Shown in pieces: positions 44,262-53,391 of a stretch of 64,000 nucleotides of DNA. The stretch is from a bacterium. GTDB lineage: Bacteria; Verrucomicrobiota; Kiritimatiellia; CAIKKV01; CAITUY01. How positions within the stretch are numbered: the first letter of the stretch is position 1; every line of letters begins with the position of its first letter. The translations under genes and the position numbers were made by a program. Below the pieces are notes generated by a model. That model was given only the letters and a program-made list of their open reading frames with translations. It was not told where the DNA came from and did no database searches. The stretch is from contig JBAWZF010000011.1 in the NCBI GenBank assembly GCA_037143175.1, positions 3,747-67,746 on the forward strand, in the 5' to 3' direction.

Positions 44262-46544
44262 TTGTTTTTTGTATATGGAAGGGCTAATATGCAAGAAACT
44301 ATGACCGCTAAAACAAACGTTTTATTTTCTGATCCGCTCCTGATGGGGGCTGATCCGGCTACGGGTTTGATGGCCGTGGAGCATGTTGAGCGCGCTGCTC
44401 AGGATCAGATGGTATTATTTTGGCGGAAGGAGGGGAGAACGGTCCAGACTGAAGTCTCTTTCTCTCCCTTTATTCTGATAGCTGATAAAGCACTTTTGGA
44501 GGGGCTCGAGAAGGGCGTGGAAGTGATCGCGCTTAAGGGAGATGCGCCCTTCCGCTGGAGGGCCAATTTTCCGACCTGGAAGGCCTGTCAGAAAGCCAAA
44601 GCCTGGTTGGCGAAAGAGACCGGGGTTATGGCGGGGAATCCACAGGCGCCCTACTTCTTGCTGACGGATCCTGTTCAGCAATATCTGATTCAAACGGGCC
44701 AGACCCTTTTCAAGGGCCTTAACTTTGCAGATCTACGCCGGATGCAGGTGGATATCGAGTGCTACACTACGGAAGGCTATGATTTCTGTAATGCGGCTCG
44801 TGAGGGAGACCGGTTGATTGCGATTGCGATGGGCGATTCATCGGGTTGGAGTGAGGTGTTGTCTGGTGATGAGTTGGACGAGAAGACGATGCTGGAGCGG
44901 TTTGTTGCCATTGTACGGGAGCGGGATCCAGATGTCATTGAGGGGCATAACATTTTCAATTTCGACCTGCCCTATATCGCTGCTCGAGCAAAGCGGGGCG
45001 GGGTAAAGCTGTCGATTGGTCGGAATGGGGCGCCCCCTGATTCGCGTCCGAGCCGGTTCTCGGTCGGGGAACGGACAATCTCATTTACGCGGTTTGAAGT
45101 GTTCGGACGGCAGATCGTCGACACTTATTTTATGGTGCAGGCTTATGATATTACCCACCGTGCGCTTGCCGGGTATGGTCTCAAGGAAGTGGCGCGACAT
45201 TTTGGAATTGCCCCTGCAAATCGGACCTACATTGAAGGCAGTGAAATTTCAGCAGAGTTTAAGCGCAATCCCCAAAAGTTGATGCAGTATGCCTTGCATG
45301 ACATTCAGGAAACAGAAGCGCTGAGCCGCCTGCTTTCCCAAAGTGCATTTATTCAAGCCCAGATGATTCCCCTCTCGTACCAGAACATCGCCATTCGCGG
45401 CAACGCCACCAAGATTGATGCCCTGATTTTGCGGGAATATCTCCACCAGAAACGGGCCATCCCTATGCCCGAACGAGGTCGTCCGTTTGCCGGGGGATAT
45501 ACAGATATGTTTATGGAGGGCGTTATCCGGAATGTGCATCATTGCGATGTGCGCTCACTTTACCCTTCGCTCATGTTGACACGTAAAATCGGACCCAAAA
45601 CTGACAGTCTCGAAGTGTTCCACCGGCTATTGGAACAGTTACGGCGTTTCCGGTTGGATGCCAAGCGTCATGAGCAGGAGGCATTCTCTGAGGGGGAGAA
45701 GTTGCATTTTGGTGCGTTGCAGGCCACATTCAAGATATTGATCAACTCGTTCTACGGTTATCTTGGATTCGATCAGGTACGCTTCAGCGATTTCGATGCC
45801 GCCGAGCGGGTGGCTTCGGAAGGGCGAGACCTGTTGCACCACATGATTGACTGGCTGAAAAAAAATGGGGCCCAGCCAGTTGAGATTGATACGGATGGCG
45901 TCTATTTTGTCCCCCCGACCGAAGGGGGCGTCAGCCAGAAATCATTCAGAAGCCATTTTTCAGCTTCCCTGCCCGAAGGCATTGACGTTGAGTTTGATGG
46001 CGAATATGTGGCGATGTTCAGCTACAAAATGAAAAATTATGCGCTGCTGACCGATAAGCAGGAGATTATTATTAAGGGAGCTGCGTTGAAGTCGCGCGGG
46101 CTGGAGCTGTTTCAACGGAATTTTCTGCGTGATATGATTCGACTTAAACTGGAAGGAAAAGAGGTCGAGATCCCGGCGTTAAAAACGCAATATGAATCAG
46201 CTATCCGGGACCGGCAGTGGCCTATTACGATGCTGGCCAAAACCGAAACGCTGCAGGATGCGCCTGCTACCTATGCCGCCAAGATTGAAGGGAAAGGCCG
46301 TGGGCGGAACGCAGCGTATGAGCTGGCGTTAACGTCTGGACGGGACTATCGAGCCGGGGATCAGTTGTCATACTACGTGGCAGGAATGAAGAAAACGGTG
46401 CAGGTGTTTGCTGCGGCGCGATTGGTGGCCGAGTGGAATCCCGTTGAGCGGGATGAGAATGTGCCGTACTATATCGCGAAATTGGATTCCCTCTATGAAA
46501 AATTCTGTGGTGGCAAACTGGGTGGTGAGCGGGAGGATGAATGA
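44262..46544 (+). CDS. polB: DNA polymerase, family B (Pol II-like)
   Basis: Exonuclease motifs DIECYT and NIFNFDLPY. Polymerase motifs RSLYPSLM, KILINSFYGYLG, EIDTDGVYF. An alternative start at 44289 is possible. Confidence 0.85.
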   Translation: MFFVYGRANMQETMTAKTNVLFSDPLLMGADPATGLMAVEHVERAAQDQMVLFWRKEGRTVQTEVSFSPFILIADKALLEGLEKGVEVIALKGDAPFRWRANFPTWKACQKAKAWLAKETGVMAGNPQAPYFLLTDPVQQYLIQTGQTLFKGLNFADLRRMQVDIECYTTEGYDFCNAAREGDRLIAIAMGDSSGWSEVLSGDELDEKTMLERFVAIVRERDPDVIEGHNIFNFDLPYIAARAKRGGVKLSIGRNGAPPDSRPSRFSVGERTISFTRFEVFGRQIVDTYFMVQAYDITHRALAGYGLKEVARHFGIAPANRTYIEGSEISAEFKRNPQKLMQYALHDIQETEALSRLLSQSAFIQAQMIPLSYQNIAIRGNATKIDALILREYLHQKRAIPMPERGRPFAGGYTDMFMEGVIRNVHHCDVRSLYPSLMLTRKIGPKTDSLEVFHRLLEQLRRFRLDAKRHEQEAFSEGEKLHFGALQATFKILINSFYGYLGFDQVRFSDFDAAERVASEGRDLLHHMIDWLKKNGAQPVEIDTDGVYFVPPTEGGVSQKSFRSHFSASLPEGIDVEFDGEYVAMFSYKMKNYALLTDKQEIIIKGAALKSRGLELFQRNFLRDMIRLKLEGKEVEIPALKTQYESAIRDRQWPITMLAKTETLQDAPATYAAKIEGKGRGRNAAYELALTSGRDYRAGDQLSYYVAGMKKTVQVFAAARLVAEWNPVERDENVPYYIAKLDSLYEKFCGGKLGGEREDE

Positions 46545-46972
46545 ATAAGAAAAGTGGTTTTACGTTAATTGAGATTCTGATTGCCATGACGATTATTGGC
46601 ATTTTGTCAGGAGTGGTGGGGTTATCGGTATCCGGCTATTTGAGGAAAGCCAAACTCGAGGCTTCCCGTGCCCAGATCAAAACGTTTCAGACAGCCTTGC
46701 AGATGTACAAGGCCGCACATGCCCAGTATCCCTCCACCTCGCAGGGACTTGAGTCGTTATGCGTGGCGTCATCCATTCCTCCGGTGCCGAAGGATTACCC
46801 CGCCGAAGGCTATCTGGAAAGTCGCAACCTACCCAAGGATCCCTGGGGGAATGCCTATATCTATCTTGTGCCCGGCAGGAAAGGGGAGCCGTATGAAATT
46901 GTGTCCTACGGTGCCGATGGAGAAGAGAGCGGTACGGGTGAGGCGGCAGACATAAGTAGCGCGAATCTGTGA
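46541..46972 (+). CDS. gspG: type II secretion major pseudopilin GspG
   Basis: Prepilin leader plus GFTLIEILIAMTIIGIL. PKDPWGNAYIYLVPG and SYGADGEE typical of GspG. ATGA overlap with the polB stop. Confidence 0.85.
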   Translation: MNKKSGFTLIEILIAMTIIGILSGVVGLSVSGYLRKAKLEASRAQIKTFQTALQMYKAAHAQYPSTSQGLESLCVASSIPPVPKDYPAEGYLESRNLPKDPWGNAYIYLVPGRKGEPYEIVSYGADGEESGTGEAADISSANL

Positions 46973-47334
46973 GTTCTGTGAATAAATCAGGATTCACATT
47001 GATAGAGTCTCTCGTGGCGCTTGCGATTCTCGGGATCATTGTCGGGGTATTGGTAAATGTCCATCTTCAGTCCCTGCGCGCTGAACATTTTTCCCAACTT
47101 CGCACATCAGCGGTGCTTGAAGGGGAAACAATCTTATCCCAGTCCTTGTCAGGGATGGAGCGACAGGCTATTGTGGATCAGGCGAGTCAACAAGGTTGGG
47201 CCGTTACAGTGAGTAATTCGACAATGAATACGGCATGGGGCGAATGGCGGATTGCGGCAACGAATGTGGATGCCCCGGCAGTGACGTTGTATTTGAGGGC
47301 AGGGGAAGAGGTAAAAGAAGCGCATGCAAAATAA
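46969..47334 (+). CDS. minor pseudopilin (prepilin-type N-terminal methylation domain)
   Basis: SGFTLIESLVALAILGIIVGVL N-terminus. 4-bp overlap with gspG. Confidence 0.75.
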   Translation: MSSVNKSGFTLIESLVALAILGIIVGVLVNVHLQSLRAEHFSQLRTSAVLEGETILSQSLSGMERQAIVDQASQQGWAVTVSNSTMNTAWGEWRIAATNVDAPAVTLYLRAGEEVKEAHAK

Positions 47335-48151
47335 ATTAATCAAACTTCAGGATCTATTGAGAGAAACTGATGGAGTGGTGGTGGCCTATTCTGGTGGTGT
47401 GGATAGCACGTTTTTGGCGGCGGTCGCAGTACAGGTCTTAGGTGACCGCGCCGTGGCAGTAACGGCCTTATCCTCAACCTATCCTGAATGGGAACAAAAA
47501 GAGGCTACTGAGCAGGCGCGGCATATGGGCATTCGGCAGATTGAAATTTCAACCCATGAAATTGATGATCCATGTTTTTCTGAAAATCCGCCCGACCGTT
47601 GCTATTATTGCAAAAAAGAGCTTGTGCATTATGTTCGGGCGGTGGCTGACCGCGAGGGAATTCAGGTCATCGTTGATGGCAGCACGGTAGACGATCTAGA
47701 CGATATCCGGCCCGGGCGACGTGCGATGGCAGAAGGTCGTGTGAGAAGTCCTTTGTTAGAAGTAGGCTTGACCAAAGCTGAGGTCCGGGAGTTATCCCGT
47801 AAGATGAATTTGCCGACAGCGGACAAGCCATCTTTGGCCTGTCTGGCTTCGCGGGTGCCGTTTGGAACTCCGATCACTGAAGAGAAGCTGAAGGCGATTG
47901 ATCAGGTTGAGCGAGCGTTGTGGGGTATGGGCTTCCGCCAATTGCGCGTCCGGCACCATGGCGAGATTGCCCGCATTGAGGTTGAGCCCTCGGAGATTGC
48001 CCGGCTCTGTGATCCCGAAGTGAGGGCGAAGGTGATTAAGGCTGCCAAAGAAGTGGGCTTTAAATATGTTGCCGCCGATCTTCAAGGCTATCGCACCGGA
48101 AGCATGAATGAGGCGTTAAAAAGAGCGAATTCAGGAGACAGTATCCAGTAG
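47324..48151 (+). CDS. PP-loop ATP pyrophosphatase, LarE/TIGR00268-like
   Basis: PP-loop SGGVDST, CYYCKK, and PSLACLASRVPFG resembling the LarE Cys region. Confidence 0.55.
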   Translation: MQNKLIKLQDLLRETDGVVVAYSGGVDSTFLAAVAVQVLGDRAVAVTALSSTYPEWEQKEATEQARHMGIRQIEISTHEIDDPCFSENPPDRCYYCKKELVHYVRAVADREGIQVIVDGSTVDDLDDIRPGRRAMAEGRVRSPLLEVGLTKAEVRELSRKMNLPTADKPSLACLASRVPFGTPITEEKLKAIDQVERALWGMGFRQLRVRHHGEIARIEVEPSEIARLCDPEVRAKVIKAAKEVGFKYVAADLQGYRTGSMNEALKRANSGDSIQ

Positions 48152-48209
48152 TCAGTATTTTTTCGGAATTCAACATGCTGGATCCTGAATTCTGGCTTCT
48201 GAATTCTCT

Positions 48210-49382
48210 CTATTTCCCCATCGCCACTTCGAGGGCCAACACGGTATAGGAGGTCACCAGGACGTCATTGGCCTCCCAGAAGCGGTTATTGGTGTTGACC
48301 CAATAGCCATGGCCGGTCTTGGAATCCACTTTTTGAAGGCCGACCAATTTCTTTACAAGTGCCTCGCGCCACATGATCTGACTTTGATCCTTGGCGGGGA
48401 TGGCATCGCGGCCATAGGCGGCCAGGGCCTTGCTGAGGACGCCGTAGAAATAATAGAGCCCTTGATCGCCCATGCCGGGGTTTTCGTCCAGTGTCCAATG
48501 TTTGGCGGCCCAATCAAAGGCTGATTGAACGCGCGGGTCATTCTTGTTTACATCGGCATAGATCAGACTCAGCAAACCTGCGTAGGTCATGCTGCCATAG
48601 GATCGAAAGACGACGATACCTTCCTTATTGGTGGTGGTGCCCGCCTTGCTCTCATCAGGCCGGTAAGCGAAGCCCCCGGCATTTTCAGCGCCGGTGGACG
48701 GCTTATTTTGGAGTCGGTCGAGGTAACGCACTGCGGCGGCCCAATCCAGATCCACATGGGCCTCTGATTTATCGCGAAGATCCTCGGCGCTTTGGGTCAG
48801 GCGCATGGATTCATAGGCAATGACGGAATCGCTTAAATCGGTATAGTCGCGGCCGCTTTCGCGATCGTAGCCCATTCCGCCTTCATAGCGGTCATCGCCG
48901 AAATGTTGTCCGGCGGCCACAAACTTCCGGGCTTTGAGAACGATGGGGGTATACTGCGGGTCATTGAGCGAGTGGAGGGCAATCATACAGAGGGCGGTAT
49001 TATAATTGCTGAGTCCGCCTCCCTTGCCGGGAATTTTGCGATAGATGCCGCCATCTGCCTGGACGTTGCCCAAGATGAATTTTGCGGCTTTGGCCGTGAC
49101 TTCGGCTTTTTTAGGATGATTACTCATGCTGAACGCCCAGAGCGGCAGTGCCGTCAGGGCGGGAAAACTGGCTTCCGACCAGGATCCATCTTCCTTTTGC
49201 TGGGCGGCCAGCCAGTCCAGTCCCCGGTTGAGGGCGGCTTCGGTTTCCTTGGACGTGGAGATGTCAATTTTGCCGCCAACAGCTTGTTTGGTGACGAGCG
49301 TCTCCGAGGCGGCGGATGCGGTGAACATCGAGGTTACGAGGCTTAATACGACCAGATGACAGATAAACGCCTGTTTTTTCAT
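48210..49382 (-). CDS. secreted prenyltransferase/squalene-oxidase-repeat (terpenoid cyclase-like alpha/alpha toroid) protein
   Basis: Signal peptide and repeated QxxxGxW-like motifs (QQKEDGSWSE, GGFAYRPDE, YYFYG). Confidence 0.45.
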   Translation of the reverse strand: MKKQAFICHLVVLSLVTSMFTASAASETLVTKQAVGGKIDISTSKETEAALNRGLDWLAAQQKEDGSWSEASFPALTALPLWAFSMSNHPKKAEVTAKAAKFILGNVQADGGIYRKIPGKGGGLSNYNTALCMIALHSLNDPQYTPIVLKARKFVAAGQHFGDDRYEGGMGYDRESGRDYTDLSDSVIAYESMRLTQSAEDLRDKSEAHVDLDWAAAVRYLDRLQNKPSTGAENAGGFAYRPDESKAGTTTNKEGIVVFRSYGSMTYAGLLSLIYADVNKNDPRVQSAFDWAAKHWTLDENPGMGDQGLYYFYGVLSKALAAYGRDAIPAKDQSQIMWREALVKKLVGLQKVDSKTGHGYWVNTNNRFWEANDVLVTSYTVLALEVAMGK

Positions 49383-49505
49383 AAGACTACTCCTTCTATT
49401 AAGTGCTACCTGAGCATTATATACTTCCTTCTGTAGGTCTCAAACAGATTAAACGCTGGCGGAGCCGAAAGAGTTCGCTAGGATTTGGAAATAGAGATCC
49501 CCTCG

Positions 49506-49559
49506 TAATTTCAGACTTCCTGTTATGTTGAGCTCAACATAACAGGAAGTCTGAAATTA
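49506..49559. repeat. perfect 54-bp palindrome (27-bp arms, no spacer) in a divergent intergenic region
   Basis: TAATTTCAGACTTCCTGTTATGTTGAG/CTCAACATAACAGGAAGTCTGAAATTA. I reverse-complemented it by hand and it is perfectly self-complementary. Confidence 0.9.
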
Positions 49560-49664
49560 TCAGGAAAGGCTCGATTTTATTGTTGGGTGGCGATATTTTA
49601 TTGCTGGTTGAGGGGAATCGTCGTAAATTTTAATCCCTATTTATCGAGTGATCGGGATAATCGC

Positions 49665-49895
49665 ATGGCAAAAGGTAAAACGGAAATTGACATGGATTTG
49701 TGTAAGGGCTGCGGCCTCTGTCTTACAGCGTGTAAGTTCAATGTTTTGAAGCTATCCAATCCGGAGCAGGTTAACAAATATGGATATCGTTTCATGGTTT
49801 CGGCTCAACCAGAGCTGTGCACGGGTTGTGGGTTATGTGCTCTGATGTGTCCTGACAGTGCCATTTCGGTGTGGCGCTCTAAAGCGAATCATTAA
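49665..49895 (+). CDS. 2-oxoacid:ferredoxin oxidoreductase delta subunit (2x[4Fe-4S] ferredoxin)
   Basis: Two CxxCxxCxxxCP motifs (CKGCGLCLTACKF, CTGCGLCALMCPD). Confidence 0.8.
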   Translation: MAKGKTEIDMDLCKGCGLCLTACKFNVLKLSNPEQVNKYGYRFMVSAQPELCTGCGLCALMCPDSAISVWRSKANH

Positions 49896-49912
49896 GGGTT
49901 GATGGGTGTCTT

Positions 49913-51022
49913 ATGGGCGAACGAGTGTTAATGAAGGGAAACGAGGCGATTGCTGAAGCAGCTATTCGAGCTGGCGTGCAGTCCTATTTCGGCTATCCGA
50001 TTACACCCCAAAATGAACTGATTGCCTACATGTCTGTGCATATGCCTGCGAAAGGCCGGACGTTTATTCAGGCGGAGAGTGAATTGGCGGCAATCAATAT
50101 GGTGTATGGCGCCGCAGCGGCAGGCATGCGCAGTATGACAAGTTCATCGAGTCCCGGACTCTCCCTCAAGCAGGAAGGAATCTCGTATCTTGTAGGGGCT
50201 CAGCTGCCTGCGGTGATTGTGAATATCATGCGGGGGGGGCCCGGCCTGGGTAATATTGCGCCTTCGCAAGCGGACTATTTTCAGGCCTGCAAGGGGGGCG
50301 GGCATGGTGATTATCATCTGGTGGTGTATGCTCCAGCTACGGTGCAGGAGGCTGCCGACCTGACCACCAAATCGTTTGATGTGGCAGACCGCTATCGCAA
50401 TCCGGTGCTTATTTTGGGGGATGCCATTATCGGACAGATGATGGAGCCTGTGGTACTGAGCGAGAGCACCCCGAACCCACCGCCCAAACCGTGGGCAGTG
50501 GGGGGGATCCGGAATGGACGAAAACCCAACTTGATCAACTCTCTTTCATTGGAAGAAGGCGTTGTTGAGGAGTGGAACTGGCTTTTCAAAGCCAAGTATG
50601 AGGAAATTAAGAAAAACGAACTCATGGTTGAAATGCTTGATTGTGAGGATGCGGATCTGATTTTAGTCGCGTATGGAACGACCTCCCGCATCTGCAAGGA
50701 AGTGTTACGCCAGTCGCGCGCCAGGGGGTTGAAGGTGGGCTTAATCCGTCCGATCACGCTCTGGCCGTTTCCCTATAGAGCCATTGCGCAGGCGGCCCGG
50801 AAAACCCCTGAATTTCTTGTGGTTGAGATGAGTCTGGGGCAGATGATTGAAGACGTCAAGTTGGCGGGGCTAGGTGATGCGGCGATCCATTTTCATGGCC
50901 GGCCGGGTGGCGGAGTTCCGCGTGAGATCGATATCAGGGAAATTATTGAGCATGTGCTGGTGCAAAAAAGAGCAGGCAAAATCGCCACGCGGGGAACCGT
51001 GATTGATTGGGAAATTTCCTGA
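49913..51022 (+). CDS. 2-oxoacid:ferredoxin oxidoreductase alpha subunit
   Basis: GYPITPQNELIAYMS and overall PorA/VorA similarity. Confidence 0.85.
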   Translation: MGERVLMKGNEAIAEAAIRAGVQSYFGYPITPQNELIAYMSVHMPAKGRTFIQAESELAAINMVYGAAAAGMRSMTSSSSPGLSLKQEGISYLVGAQLPAVIVNIMRGGPGLGNIAPSQADYFQACKGGGHGDYHLVVYAPATVQEAADLTTKSFDVADRYRNPVLILGDAIIGQMMEPVVLSESTPNPPPKPWAVGGIRNGRKPNLINSLSLEEGVVEEWNWLFKAKYEEIKKNELMVEMLDCEDADLILVAYGTTSRICKEVLRQSRARGLKVGLIRPITLWPFPYRAIAQAARKTPEFLVVEMSLGQMIEDVKLAGLGDAAIHFHGRPGGGVPREIDIREIIEHVLVQKRAGKIATRGTVIDWEIS

Positions 51023-51034
51023 GGCAAGTGTTTT

Positions 51035-51811
51035 ATGAGCGATATGGAAATGGAAAAAATTGCCGGACGATCCTCGTTGTGGGATGCCAAGCCTTCTCCC
51101 TATTGTCCGGGTTGTGGACATGGGGTGGTGCACCGGGTGCTATGCGAATTGATTGAAGAATACAATCTCGCTGACAATTGCGTCTTTATGGCGCCAGTAG
51201 GGTGTTCCATCCTGGCCTACACTTTTCTGGGACTGGATGTCTGTCAGTCAGCCCATGGCAGAACGCCTGCGGCAGCGACGGGTATCAAGCGAGCCCGTCC
51301 GGATACGTTTGTTCTGGCCTATCAGGGAGATGGGGATCTGGCTTCGATCGGTACAGCGGAAATAATTCATGCCGCCAATCGCGGGGAAAACATCACCACC
51401 ATTTTCGTGAATAATGCGATTTACGGAATGACTGGCGGCCAGATGGCTCCCACGACCCTCGCGGGGCAGACGGCCACGACTTGCTCGAACGGGCGTGATG
51501 CGTCATTGGGGATGGGGAATCCGCTCCGTGTTTGTGAGATGCTTCAGAGCCTGGCGGGAGTGACCTATCTGGCGCGCACGACGGTGCATACTCCGGCAAA
51601 TGTGATCAAGACAAAGATAGCCATTAAGAAGGCTTTTGATGTGCAACTCAAGCGGCAGGGGTTTTCGTTGGTGGAAATTCTTTCTTCCTGTCCGGTCAAC
51701 TGGGGTATGCAGCCCGTTGCGGCCTTGGATTTTGTTGATAAGAAGATGGTGCCTCAATACCCATTGGGCGAGTTCAAGGTGGGTGGTGTTTCTGTCACAC
51801 CAGGGGCATAG
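51035..51811 (+). CDS. 2-oxoacid:ferredoxin oxidoreductase beta subunit (TPP-binding)
   Basis: CPGCGHG and a TPP-binding GDG...N region. Confidence 0.85.
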   Translation: MSDMEMEKIAGRSSLWDAKPSPYCPGCGHGVVHRVLCELIEEYNLADNCVFMAPVGCSILAYTFLGLDVCQSAHGRTPAAATGIKRARPDTFVLAYQGDGDLASIGTAEIIHAANRGENITTIFVNNAIYGMTGGQMAPTTLAGQTATTCSNGRDASLGMGNPLRVCEMLQSLAGVTYLARTTVHTPANVIKTKIAIKKAFDVQLKRQGFSLVEILSSCPVNWGMQPVAALDFVDKKMVPQYPLGEFKVGGVSVTPGA

Positions 51812-51822
51812 GAAGGCGTATC

Positions 51823-52359
51823 ATGGAGCATCGTTGCATATTTTCCGGATTTGGTGGTCAGGGCATCGTTTCACTGGGGACTTTGGTGGCCAATGCCGGA
51901 ATGGCGGATAACCGTTACGTGACATTTTTTCCTTCGTACGGTATCGCCATGCGTGGGGGAATGGCGAGTTGTACCATTGTGGTATCTGATCACGAGATTA
52001 ATTCGCCGATCGTAAATGATCCGACTGTTTTGATGGTCATGGATGAGGCGTCCTACGATTGTTTTCATGGCAAGGTGGCTTCAGGCGGATTGATGTTTGT
52101 GAATTCAAGCCTGGTCAATAAGCGGATTTCACGTCCGGATGTTAAAGCGGTATATATTAATGCTACTGGTATTGCGCTCGAGCACGGGGATGGCCGCATG
52201 GCTAATATGGTGATGCTGGGTGCCGTTATCAAGTTGACCCGTATAGTTTCTTTTGAAGCCGTAGAAACGGCCATTAATAAAATTCCTTCGGTCAAGCTTC
52301 ACTCGCTTATCGGTCGGAATTTGCAAGTCATGAAGCTTGGATTTGAGGAAGCGAAATAG
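51823..52359 (+). CDS. 2-oxoacid:ferredoxin oxidoreductase gamma subunit
   Basis: FSGFGGQGIVSLGTLVANAG motif. Confidence 0.8.
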   Translation: MEHRCIFSGFGGQGIVSLGTLVANAGMADNRYVTFFPSYGIAMRGGMASCTIVVSDHEINSPIVNDPTVLMVMDEASYDCFHGKVASGGLMFVNSSLVNKRISRPDVKAVYINATGIALEHGDGRMANMVMLGAVIKLTRIVSFEAVETAINKIPSVKLHSLIGRNLQVMKLGFEEAK

Positions 52360-52374
52360 ATTAGGAGTTAGGTC

Positions 52375-53391
52375 ATGTCGTCCAAAATTGATTTTGACAA
52401 ACTGTGTTTTTCAATCACCCCCGGTGATACCATGTTCATCAGCAAATGTAAGGCAGATGGTGTGTGGGATAAAGGGGCCTGTCTGCCTTATGGGGACATC
52501 CCCATTTCTCCAGCCGCAGGGGTGTTGAATTATGGCCAGGGTTTGTTTGAAGGTCTCAAGGCGATGCGGACGAAAACCGGGAAAGTGGTGTTGTTCCGTC
52601 CTTCCGAAAACGGAAAGCGTATGACTGAGGGCGCCCATCGTGTCTGTATGCCTCCATTCCCTGTGGATAGGTTTGTGGAGGTGATTTGTGAGATTGTGCG
52701 CCGGAATGTAGCCTTTGTTCCTCCTTATGGGAAAGGCAGTCTTTACATTCGTCCGTGTCTTTGGGGGACGGGGCCAGTGTTGGGGGTCTCTCCTGCTCCA
52801 GAATTCACTTTTATGGTGTATGTCTCGCCTGTGGGCCAATATTTCAAAACAGGTGTCAAACCCATCAAGCTTGAGATCACTCGTGATTTTCACCGTGCAG
52901 CACCGAAGGGGACGGGCGGAGTGAAGTCTATTGGTAACTATGCGGGCGCCATGCTGCCTGCAAAAATCACCAAGGCTAAAGGATTTAACGAGTGTATTTA
53001 TCTGGATGCGCATGAGGATAAGTATATCGAGGAAGTGGGCGCGGCTAATTTCTTCTGTGTGAAGGACCATACGTTGCTGACGCCCAAGCTTGGTTCGATA
53101 TTGCCAGGCATCACCCGCAAATCGGTGATGCAGATTGCTCAGGATGTCATGGGATTGCAGGTGATCGAGAAGAGTCTATCGGTGGAGGAGGCGTTTTCGG
53201 CCGATGAGGCCTTCTGTTCCGGTACCGCCGCCGTGATTAGTCCCATTGGCTCCATTACTTGTGAAGACCAGGTGAAAATTTATCAAGATTTTGAGGTGGG
53301 GCCGGTCACTCAATCTTTGTACGATCATTTGACGCGTATCCAATTGTGTGAGGAAGAGGATCGATTCGGCTGGGTTGTTGAGGTCATGTGA
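52375..53391 (+). CDS. ilvE: branched-chain amino acid aminotransferase (fold type IV)
   Basis: GQGLFEGLKA, SLYIRP, ANFFCV motifs of BCAT. Confidence 0.85.
   Translation: MSSKIDFDKLCFSITPGDTMFISKCKADGVWDKGACLPYGDIPISPAAGVLNYGQGLFEGLKAMRTKTGKVVLFRPSENGKRMTEGAHRVCMPPFPVDRFVEVICEIVRRNVAFVPPYGKGSLYIRPCLWGTGPVLGVSPAPEFTFMVYVSPVGQYFKTGVKPIKLEITRDFHRAAPKGTGGVKSIGNYAGAMLPAKITKAKGFNECIYLDAHEDKYIEEVGAANFFCVKDHTLLTPKLGSILPGITRKSVMQIAQDVMGLQVIEKSLSVEEAFSADEAFCSGTAAVISPIGSITCEDQVKIYQDFEVGPVTQSLYDHLTRIQLCEEEDRFGWVVEVM

Follow-up and report, generated by a model that had tools for sequence, protein, structure and literature searches.

A stretch of 64,000 nucleotides from a Kiritimatiellia bacterium (contig JBAWZF010000011.1 of assembly GCA_037143175.1; hereafter the window) carries, between two divergent transcription units, a perfect 54-bp palindrome that we examine here as a probable attachment site of a family of mobile elements, the recombinase-in-trio (RIT) elements. 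The gene on its left (48210..49382, minus strand) encodes a 390-aa secreted protein with prenyltransferase/SQHop (squalene)-cyclase repeats, and the genes on its right (49665..53391, plus strand) encode a 2x[4Fe-4S] ferredoxin (delta; 49665-49895), the alpha, beta and gamma subunits of a 2-oxoacid:ferredoxin oxidoreductase (OFOR) and a class IV aminotransferase. Both neighbours read away from the palindrome, as the first-pass annotation of this DNA had stated, and the palindrome lies 105 nt upstream of the ferredoxin start codon and 63 nt from a sigma-70-like promoter of the 390-aa gene (TTGAGA-16-TATAAT, 11/12; 49416..49443, minus strand).

The palindrome occupies positions 49506-49559 and reads TAATTTCAGACTTCCTGTTATGTTGAG|CTCAACATAACAGGAAGTCTGAAATTA; its first description, with 27-nt arms, zero mismatches, no spacer and a central GAGCTC, was borne out by our check of the sequence. 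If 2 mismatches are allowed, a repeat finder lengthens the arms to 32 nt (49501-49564). It is the sole long perfect hairpin within the 64 kb, its 27-nt arm has no second match in the window even when 3 mismatches are tolerated, nor any in 100 shuffles, and the chance expectation for such a palindrome is 3.6e-12 per window under uniform base composition. Folded as single-stranded DNA, it reaches -26.4 kcal/mol (z = -10.6). We denote its parts by the symbols a (tAAnTTCAGAN), s (TTCCTG) and b (TTATGTTGAG), a prime marking the reverse complement, so that the window copy has the layout a-s-b-b'-s'-a': outer arm a, TAATTTCAGAC (49506..49516), the last base of which, C, is a variable position N; spacer s (49517..49522); inner arm b (49523..49532); then, on the minus strand, inner arm b', CTCAACATAA (49533..49542), spacer s', CAGGAA (49543..49548), and outer arm a', GTCTGAAATTA (49549..49559). 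The sequence (C)GTAAT precedes the outer arm in the window (49504-49509) and also in contigs L037-L039.

The first-pass annotation had proposed a search for further copies, and this search revealed that the palindrome is multi-copy in related genomes. Scanning one genome per species for the exact central 32 bp, we found 8 loci in 4 metagenome-assembled genomes (MAGs) of the Planctomycetes-Verrucomicrobia-Chlamydiae (PVC) group, five of them on different contigs of a single Lentisphaerae MAG and three in further MAGs. When metagenomes were scanned with 19 nt of one arm, leaving the other arm mostly unconstrained, 29 loci were returned; a one-arm scan of viral contigs had no matches. After dereplication, 30 sites were retained, comprising about 17 solo palindromes, a few degenerate ones, several hybrids and 2 probable chance matches. 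The solo palindromes have unrelated flanks and are all intergenic; 9 lie 2-61 nt past a stop codon, and two, the window copy among them, are located between divergent genes.

A logo of 32 outer arms is conserved over 11 nt (tAAnTTCAGAN) and falls to background beyond, which defines the family unit as 2 x (11-nt outer arm + 6-bp spacer + 10-nt inner arm) = 54 bp. The window arms match this logo, and the copy at 49506..49559 is thus perfect over 54 bp because both of its sides match the family consensus. Each half-site, TAAnTTCAGAN-TTCCTG-TTATGTTGAG, reads 11-6-10 like a dif/lox core. The base N, last of the outer arm, may be C, T, G or A among copies and is identical in both arms of 16-17 of the 18-19 copies. 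No consistent direct repeat was found at seven boundary offsets in 16 copies (mean about 1 nt or less), and this missing target-site duplication of fixed length rules out a miniature inverted-repeat transposable element (MITE) of a DDE transposon. The earlier suggestion that the palindrome is the footprint of a miniature mobile element was therefore essentially right: it belongs to a multi-copy repeat family and is missing from the orthologous intergenic region of relatives, but the family is not a DDE-type one, given the lack of a duplication and arms that correspond to tyrosine-recombinase RIT junctions.

Two other observations were made beside members of the family. A strain-level difference next to one solo palindrome (L038 5058-5092 versus L041 759-1186) comes from the loss of a pilin-like gene (147 aa), bounded by the 4-bp direct repeat ATGT and 35 nt away from the palindrome, to which the deletion seems unrelated; it was set aside. 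The Lentisphaerae MAG also contains an unrelated MITE-like repeat of about 250 bp with nested hairpins (ggctttata..cccgtggtttcaaccacggg..) in several copies (L001 275-520; L005 1670-1909; L006 513-613 and 4491-4630), once directly beside a palindrome.

Some of the one-arm matches have a different outer arm, A (CTTCACATAA), about 150 nt upstream of a tyrosine-recombinase-like gene, and in L018 and L024 three recombinase genes stand in tandem. Most homologues of the first recombinase come from contigs of about 3.16 kb, as is typical of a repeat at whose ends assemblies break off. The three-gene element occurs in at least 6 different flanks (L047-L054) and as a stand-alone contig of 3,169 bp (L055). 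The three tyrosine recombinase (YR) genes are carried by L018, L024, L047-L055, L059, L063 and L070, with 4-bp overlaps in most copies, and their best matches are RitA, RitB and RitC from the published RIT of Sphingobium herbicidovorans MH, in the same order and with 32%, 33% and 41% identity. In the PVC group, these elements are about 3.2 kb long and have 27-bp terminal repeats, TTATGTGAAG-CGGACTG-TTATGTTGAG. The terminal repeats of the Sphingobium RIT (TTATGCGAAG-CGCCGGA-TTATGCGCAG) and likewise those of a Sinorhizobium RIT follow the same grammar, spacer-TTATGyGAAG-N7-TTATGnnnAG at both ends, and inner arm b of the palindrome is of this motif type. Genes and termini identify the three-gene elements of the PVC group as genuine RIT elements. 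Rit proteins are classed among the simple Xer-like YRs (PMC8138268), in keeping with core sites of the form 11-6-10.

The complete insertions L053 and L059 have the structure flank-a-s-b-b'-s'-[A'...RIT...A]-s-b-b'-s'-a'-flank, and both RIT ends share with the window the core and the a arm (TTCAGAC). The 32-bp core of the window (49517-49548), TTCCTG-TTATGTTGAG-CTCAACATAA-CAGGAA, is identical to that of L024 and differs by 1-2 bases, within the central 20 bp, from the cores of L047-L054, L059 and L070. The 20-bp b-b' module can be replaced between TTCCTG and CAGGAA by a 293-bp module X (ends ACCTCGG...CCGAGGT), and the four left/right combinations of modules around RITs all exist: X/b-b' in L050, b-b'/X in L052 and L054, X/X in L051 and b-b'/b-b' in L053. 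Module X is non-coding, with imperfect terminal inverted repeats of about 50 nt and an internal GC-rich hairpin, and occurs in the frame a-TTCCTG-X-CAGGAA-a', alone or beside RITs (L052 3333-3625; L056 5390-5673; L050 150-442; L051 383-679 and 3857-4141). An apparent miniature RIT was also seen at L019 1-130, on a contig that starts inside the element: inner terminal-repeat motifs ATTATGTTGAG ... CTCAACATAA, 46 nt apart, are followed by the usual A-s-b-b'-s'-a junction, and it looks like a non-autonomous derivative with none of the three genes.

A further locus lies upstream of the gene for an ArsP permease, a protein found with identical sequence on 97 contigs. Here a constant flank, CAGGAA-GTCTGAATTTTGAAC..., joins a solo a-s-X-s'-a' unit in L056-58, 60, 62, 64, 65 and 71-73, the ritC end of a RIT in L047 and L049, and, in L059, L063 and L070, its ritA end, where the 20-bp module takes either orientation. 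The RIT thus occurs in both orientations at the same locus, which marks the site as lacking polarity, in keeping with a palindrome. All observed breakpoints, whether of the RIT, the 20-bp module or X, fall at TTCCTG/CAGGAA. From this we infer that strand exchange takes place within the hexamer, a proposal for which the comparative evidence is strong. The DNA past X varies among contigs of this locus (a GH10 gene, an ABC transporter and others), which suggests rearrangements between dispersed copies.

Several further features of the ArsP locus were recorded. The outer arm is preceded in this organism by about 27 additional conserved nt (GTAATCTyGAAyTkGCGTTCGAGAT; L056 5350-5383, L058 5225-5255 and L071); L071 has two direct copies of this sequence about 290 nt apart versus one in L056, suggesting a further layer of repeat-mediated deletion. 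The ars cluster downstream of ArsP varies among contigs, and RITs adjoin arsenic-resistance genes both at this locus (L047-L065) and on an Agrobacterium Ti plasmid (L067 1341-7963; ArsR/ArsK/ArsH/ArsC/ACR3), an adjacency that could be coincidence or could reflect RIT-linked mobility of ars islands.

Proteobacterial RITs offer a comparison outside the PVC group. The Sphingobium and Sinorhizobium elements have a single b-b'-type module (TTATGGAAAG|GTATGCATAA and TTATGCAAAG|GTTTGCATAA), bounded by its own pair of spacers (TTTCGG/CCGAAA and TTTCTC/GAGAAA) and confined to one side of the element, and those examined lack a conserved outer arm. The conserved a arms, the module on both sides of the RIT and the free-standing solo copies set the PVC group apart from these. 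As the s-b-b'-s' core is also found in proteobacterial RITs, it is intrinsic to these elements, and the core in the window is presumably RIT-derived and not a host repeat. When the predicted Sphingobium junction was searched for in proteobacterial plasmids for solo core palindromes, the matches that were inspected, a part of the total, were all RIT ends.

Two RIT copies of S. herbicidovorans sit in different transposase genes of the insertion sequence (IS) family IS66, at the same codons (G/Q-R-K-N motif), where the 6-bp spacer overlaps C-Arg-AA (CCGTAA / GCGGAA; L066 1100-1170 and 4500-4600; L068 760-800 and 4170-4260). A contig of the PVC group has a RIT-end relic that abuts a truncated IS66 transposase at these same codons (CAGGAA-GAATTGG = ..R-K-N-W; L035 5060-5140, equal to L032 630-700), and RITs may in nature insert recurrently into IS66 transposase genes. 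Although the two Sphingobium copies have different targets, they share the right-hand hexamer CCGTAA, as if 6 bp travelled with the element.

We consider that the window palindrome is probably a solo, unoccupied attachment site of the RIT family in PVC-group bacteria. Such a site would be a pair of inverted cores of the dif/lox type that meet back to back at their inner arms, and the Xer-like Rit tyrosine recombinases would exchange strands within the 6-bp spacer. A RIT with an A-s-b-b'-s'-A' junction could then enter a solo palindrome via either spacer, giving either orientation of the element because the site is palindromic, and recombination between the directly repeated 32-bp cores around the RIT would remove it again, leaving an exact a-s-b-b'-s'-a' unit. 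The window copy was acquired in the lineage of the window, as discussed below with its relatives.

Several results weigh against this reading. In the 64-kb window, we found no Rit-like ORF (tblastn at 1e-2), no RIT terminal repeat at up to 6 mismatches and no module X; for lack of a Rit-like ORF, the feature is to be taken as a RIT-type site only and not as a RIT element. None of the loci was seen both as a solo b-b' site and occupied by a RIT: the sole occupancy polymorphism, at the ArsP locus and differing at the spacer, has an X-module allele as its RIT-free form, and look-ups for a solo b-b' allele there gave X-type and RIT-occupied alleles only. The spacer-crossover model does not say how an a...a' unit first reaches a naive site, and the single b-b' module and missing a arms of proteobacterial RITs leave the arrival of the complete unit unexplained. 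Nor does the model account for the symmetry of N between arms, which would follow if one arm were copied from the other (hairpin or snap-back) or if the copies descended from symmetric masters. The predicted circular junction A-s-b-b'-s'-A' was seen only at the end of a contig (L018), and we give this A/A palindrome little weight as evidence of a circle because an assembler fold-back at a contig end would look alike. Nielsen et al., who examined exonuclease-resistant DNA, could detect no junctions of RIT circles in it and proposed that the intermediates end in hairpins (PMC5737581).

A wider model can be put forward tentatively, and we would not yet call it probable. The RITs of the PVC group might use a polarity-free site made of two inverted Xer-type cores fused at their inner arms, with exchange at the TTCCTG spacer, and might have seeded their hosts with modules like X and with solo 54-bp 'landing pads', that of the window being an example; such pads could capture RITs in either orientation and mediate rearrangements between dispersed copies. 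If true, RIT elements would for the first time have a defined site of recombination, position of crossover and target, and the three types of arm (a, TTATG-type and x) would suggest a reason for the three recombinases.

Of the other explanations, an independent repeat family survives best, although we regard it as rather unlikely. According to it, the palindromes are similar to repetitive extragenic palindromic (REP) sequences, spread by their own hairpin or snap-back mechanism and are merely targeted by RITs, as some IS elements target REPs and bacterial interspersed mosaic elements (BIMEs). Solo copies do outnumber the RIT-adjacent ones, the window has no RIT, the nine copies shortly past stop codons are placed as REPs are, and copies are internally symmetric even at the four-state base N, a symmetry that arm copying would yield. 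Against this, the s-b-b'-s' core shares its architecture and motif (TTATGnnnAG) with the junction module of proteobacterial RITs, where there are no such host repeats; the copies have no GTAG-type REP head; their number looks low, with 5 exact-core copies in one MAG; and no RAYT (REP-associated tyrosine transposase)/Y1 transposase stands beside copies in the ORF and Pfam tables inspected, no systematic search having been made.

Hairpin resolution in the manner of a telomere resolvase appears more doubtful still. Rit enzymes would here act at the centre b|b', releasing a hairpin-ended linear RIT, and the chromosomal hairpins would fuse again into a solo palindrome. Perfect palindromes of 40-56 bp without spacer are classic protelomerase substrates, and the window palindrome resembles them; this mechanism would explain the arm-to-arm symmetry of N and is in line with the intermediates proposed by Nielsen et al. 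Yet the breakpoints are at the spacers and not at the centre, and the non-palindromic 293-bp X can replace b-b'. Moreover, the 20-bp modules that flank RITs stay imperfect (TTATGTGGTG|CTCAACATAA) and occur in both orientations, whereas replication through hairpins would have made them symmetric.

A local role of the palindrome, either as an operator through which a dimeric regulator controls the OFOR and aminotransferase genes or, once transcribed, as a hairpin that stabilises mRNA, terminates transcription or is cut by RNase III, seems very improbable. Its position between divergent genes a short distance upstream of the ferredoxin start, its strong stem and the many other copies directly 3' of genes, a position from which a hairpin might shield transcripts or end them, speak for such a role. 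The relatives of the locus speak against it. Homologues of the 390-aa protein form a graded series of identity, and the divergent 390-aa/OFOR arrangement is kept in L012/L013 (88% protein identity) and L014/L015 (84%), while in a relative with 89% identity (P0002) synteny is lost. The palindrome is absent from the syntenic intergenic regions of L012-L015, where the called gap between the genes is 225 nt in L014/L015 versus 282 nt in the window, and it was therefore gained in the lineage of the window; as the intergenic DNA of these closest syntenic relatives (84-88%) is too diverged for an insertion boundary to be set at base level, absence alone is stated. The promoter-like TTGAGA-16-TATAAT of the 390-aa gene is conserved in these palindrome-free relatives, so that the insertion left it undisrupted.

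A locus-specific operator is not supported, since orthologous promoters (L012-L015) do not conserve the site though they conserve promoter-like sequence close by, and neither is the proposal of the first-pass annotation that a dimeric regulator of branched-chain amino acid fermentation binds here: identical copies adjoin unrelated genes, usually just past their stop codons. A sigma-70 scan found as its sole promoter-like site that of the 390-aa gene, which lies outside the palindrome, and a sigma-54 -24/-12 element perceived by eye just downstream, in TGGCGATATTTTATTGC, was dropped as its spacing is 2 nt too long. No terminator was called in 49300-49750, the stem is followed by AAATTA and not by a U-tract, and the neighbours are divergent, which together exclude an intrinsic terminator, as the first-pass annotation had held for this copy. 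An Rfam scan of 48000-51000 returned no family above threshold, only spurious sub-threshold look-alikes of miRNA hairpins as any long hairpin would yield. The cruciform and RNase III target proposed earlier are physically possible, given the strong fold, but nothing in our analysis supports them. The palindrome thus has no demonstrated role in the OFOR operon and sits in a tolerated intergenic spacer; for this operon, the result is deflationary, as it leaves the palindrome unlinked to branched-chain 2-oxoacid metabolism.

The surroundings of the palindrome contain further features. Between it and the ferredoxin gene, a direct repeat at 49574-49610 (ATTTTATTGTTGGGTG / ATTTTATTGCTGGTTG, 21-nt spacing) could act as a true promoter or operator of the OFOR operon; the relatives have in this region a single GCAATAwAAAAT-like motif on the other strand. 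An imperfect inverted repeat at 48116-48203 (29-nt arms, 72% complementary, 30 nt apart) lies between the 390-aa gene and a convergent NAD-synthase-like gene, and is possibly a shared terminator region. Farther away (44262-47334), pseudopilin genes of type II secretion (T2SSG / N_methyl) stand directly behind a gene for a family-B DNA polymerase, an order conserved in L010-L015.

An assembly artefact, the event that the first-pass annotation had named as its refutation, can be practically dismissed: de Bruijn assemblers can create or lengthen palindromes by fold-back at repeats and some family members are at contig ends (L018, L024, L043), but the window copy lies inside its contig between two unique flanks, its whole 282-nt intergenic region recurs identically on an ENA contig of a different assembly (L009), and internal copies are present in more than 15 contigs from differing pipelines. 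The ferredoxin protein is found on 8 contigs with the same neighbourhood, and contigs made by several assemblers contain family members.

The attribution of the palindrome to RIT elements gives a concrete handle on the recombination of a poorly understood group, for which target specificity, formation of empty sites and mode of movement are tabulated as 'not tested' (PMC10214605). The anatomy described here yields testable predictions, namely a 54-bp substrate, a 6-bp crossover, three types of arm, integration in either orientation and a solo product after excision. It also matters for annotation, as a regulatory-looking palindrome in a promoter region can be the debris of a mobile element. 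RIT elements are widespread and were reportedly found in 7 phyla by Ricker in 2013. In the RIT papers that we compared (PMC3414803, PMC5737581, PMC10214605, PMC8138268; Ricker et al. 2013 lies outside the comparison), we found no dispersed family of solo sites or defined crossover described, and within this scope the solo-palindrome family, the modular a-s-[module]-s'-a' grammar and the crossover at the hexamer appear to be new.

Compared with known systems, the palindrome resembles protelomerase targets, such as telRL of N15 (about 56 bp), in being a perfect spacer-less palindrome of about 50 bp with enzymes of tyrosine-recombinase type nearby in related loci. It differs in that copies are internal and multi-copy in chromosomal contigs with breakpoints at the spacers, not at the centre, and on these grounds a protelomerase target was rejected, no search for a protelomerase having been made. 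REP sequences are imperfect palindromes of 20-40 nt with a GTAG-type head, present in hundreds of copies, and the RAYT gene is flanked by them. Like REPs, BIMEs and MITEs, our palindromes are short, dispersed and intergenic, often just downstream of genes; unlike them, they have no GTAG head, a low copy number, no target-site duplication and arms that look like tyrosine-recombinase core sites and are identical to RIT junctions. Membership of the REP/RAYT system was rejected for the missing head, the five exact-core copies in the best-sampled MAG and the lack of a RAYT in the tables inspected, without a systematic search. Solo long terminal repeats (LTRs) and att scars are a closer parallel, a solo unit being the expected product of recombination between bracketing direct repeats, but here the repeat is itself palindromic and without polarity, accepts either orientation of the element, and an occupied/solo pair at one locus was not seen.

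The chromosomal dif site is a single 28-bp site (11-6-11) per replicon, at the terminus. The RIT-side half-site GCTTCACATAA-TTCCTG-TTATGTTGAGC resembles the dif of Escherichia coli, GGTGCGCATAA-TGTATA-TTATGTTAAAT, both being arm-6 bp-arm, and the Xer-like nature of Rit proteins strengthens the parallel (PMC8138268). The RIT-type site differs in being multi-copy, in fusing two sites back to back without intervening DNA, in having an outer arm a unlike a Xer arm, and in its association with element-encoded trios of recombinases, not shown to be host XerC/D; five copies on different contigs of one MAG, each with two fused sites, rule out a chromosomal dif. The pdif modules of Acinetobacter plasmids are likewise segments bounded by inverse sites in differing combinations, as are b-b', X and the RIT here. 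The nearest system remains that of the RIT elements themselves (Van Houdt et al. 2009/2012, PMC3414803; Ricker et al. 2013; Nielsen et al. 2017, PMC5737581), with which the PVC loci share the ritA-ritB-ritC order, the short overlaps and the terminal-repeat grammar, and at the ends of which Nielsen et al. had noted imperfect palindromes of 47 and 51 bp (PMC5737581). The PVC palindromes differ from those of proteobacterial RITs in standing on both sides of the element and alone, with 11-nt a arms, and the window holds the site by itself, without recombinase genes or RIT terminal repeats; its palindrome nevertheless shares both the 32-bp core and the outer arms of the PVC RIT junctions.

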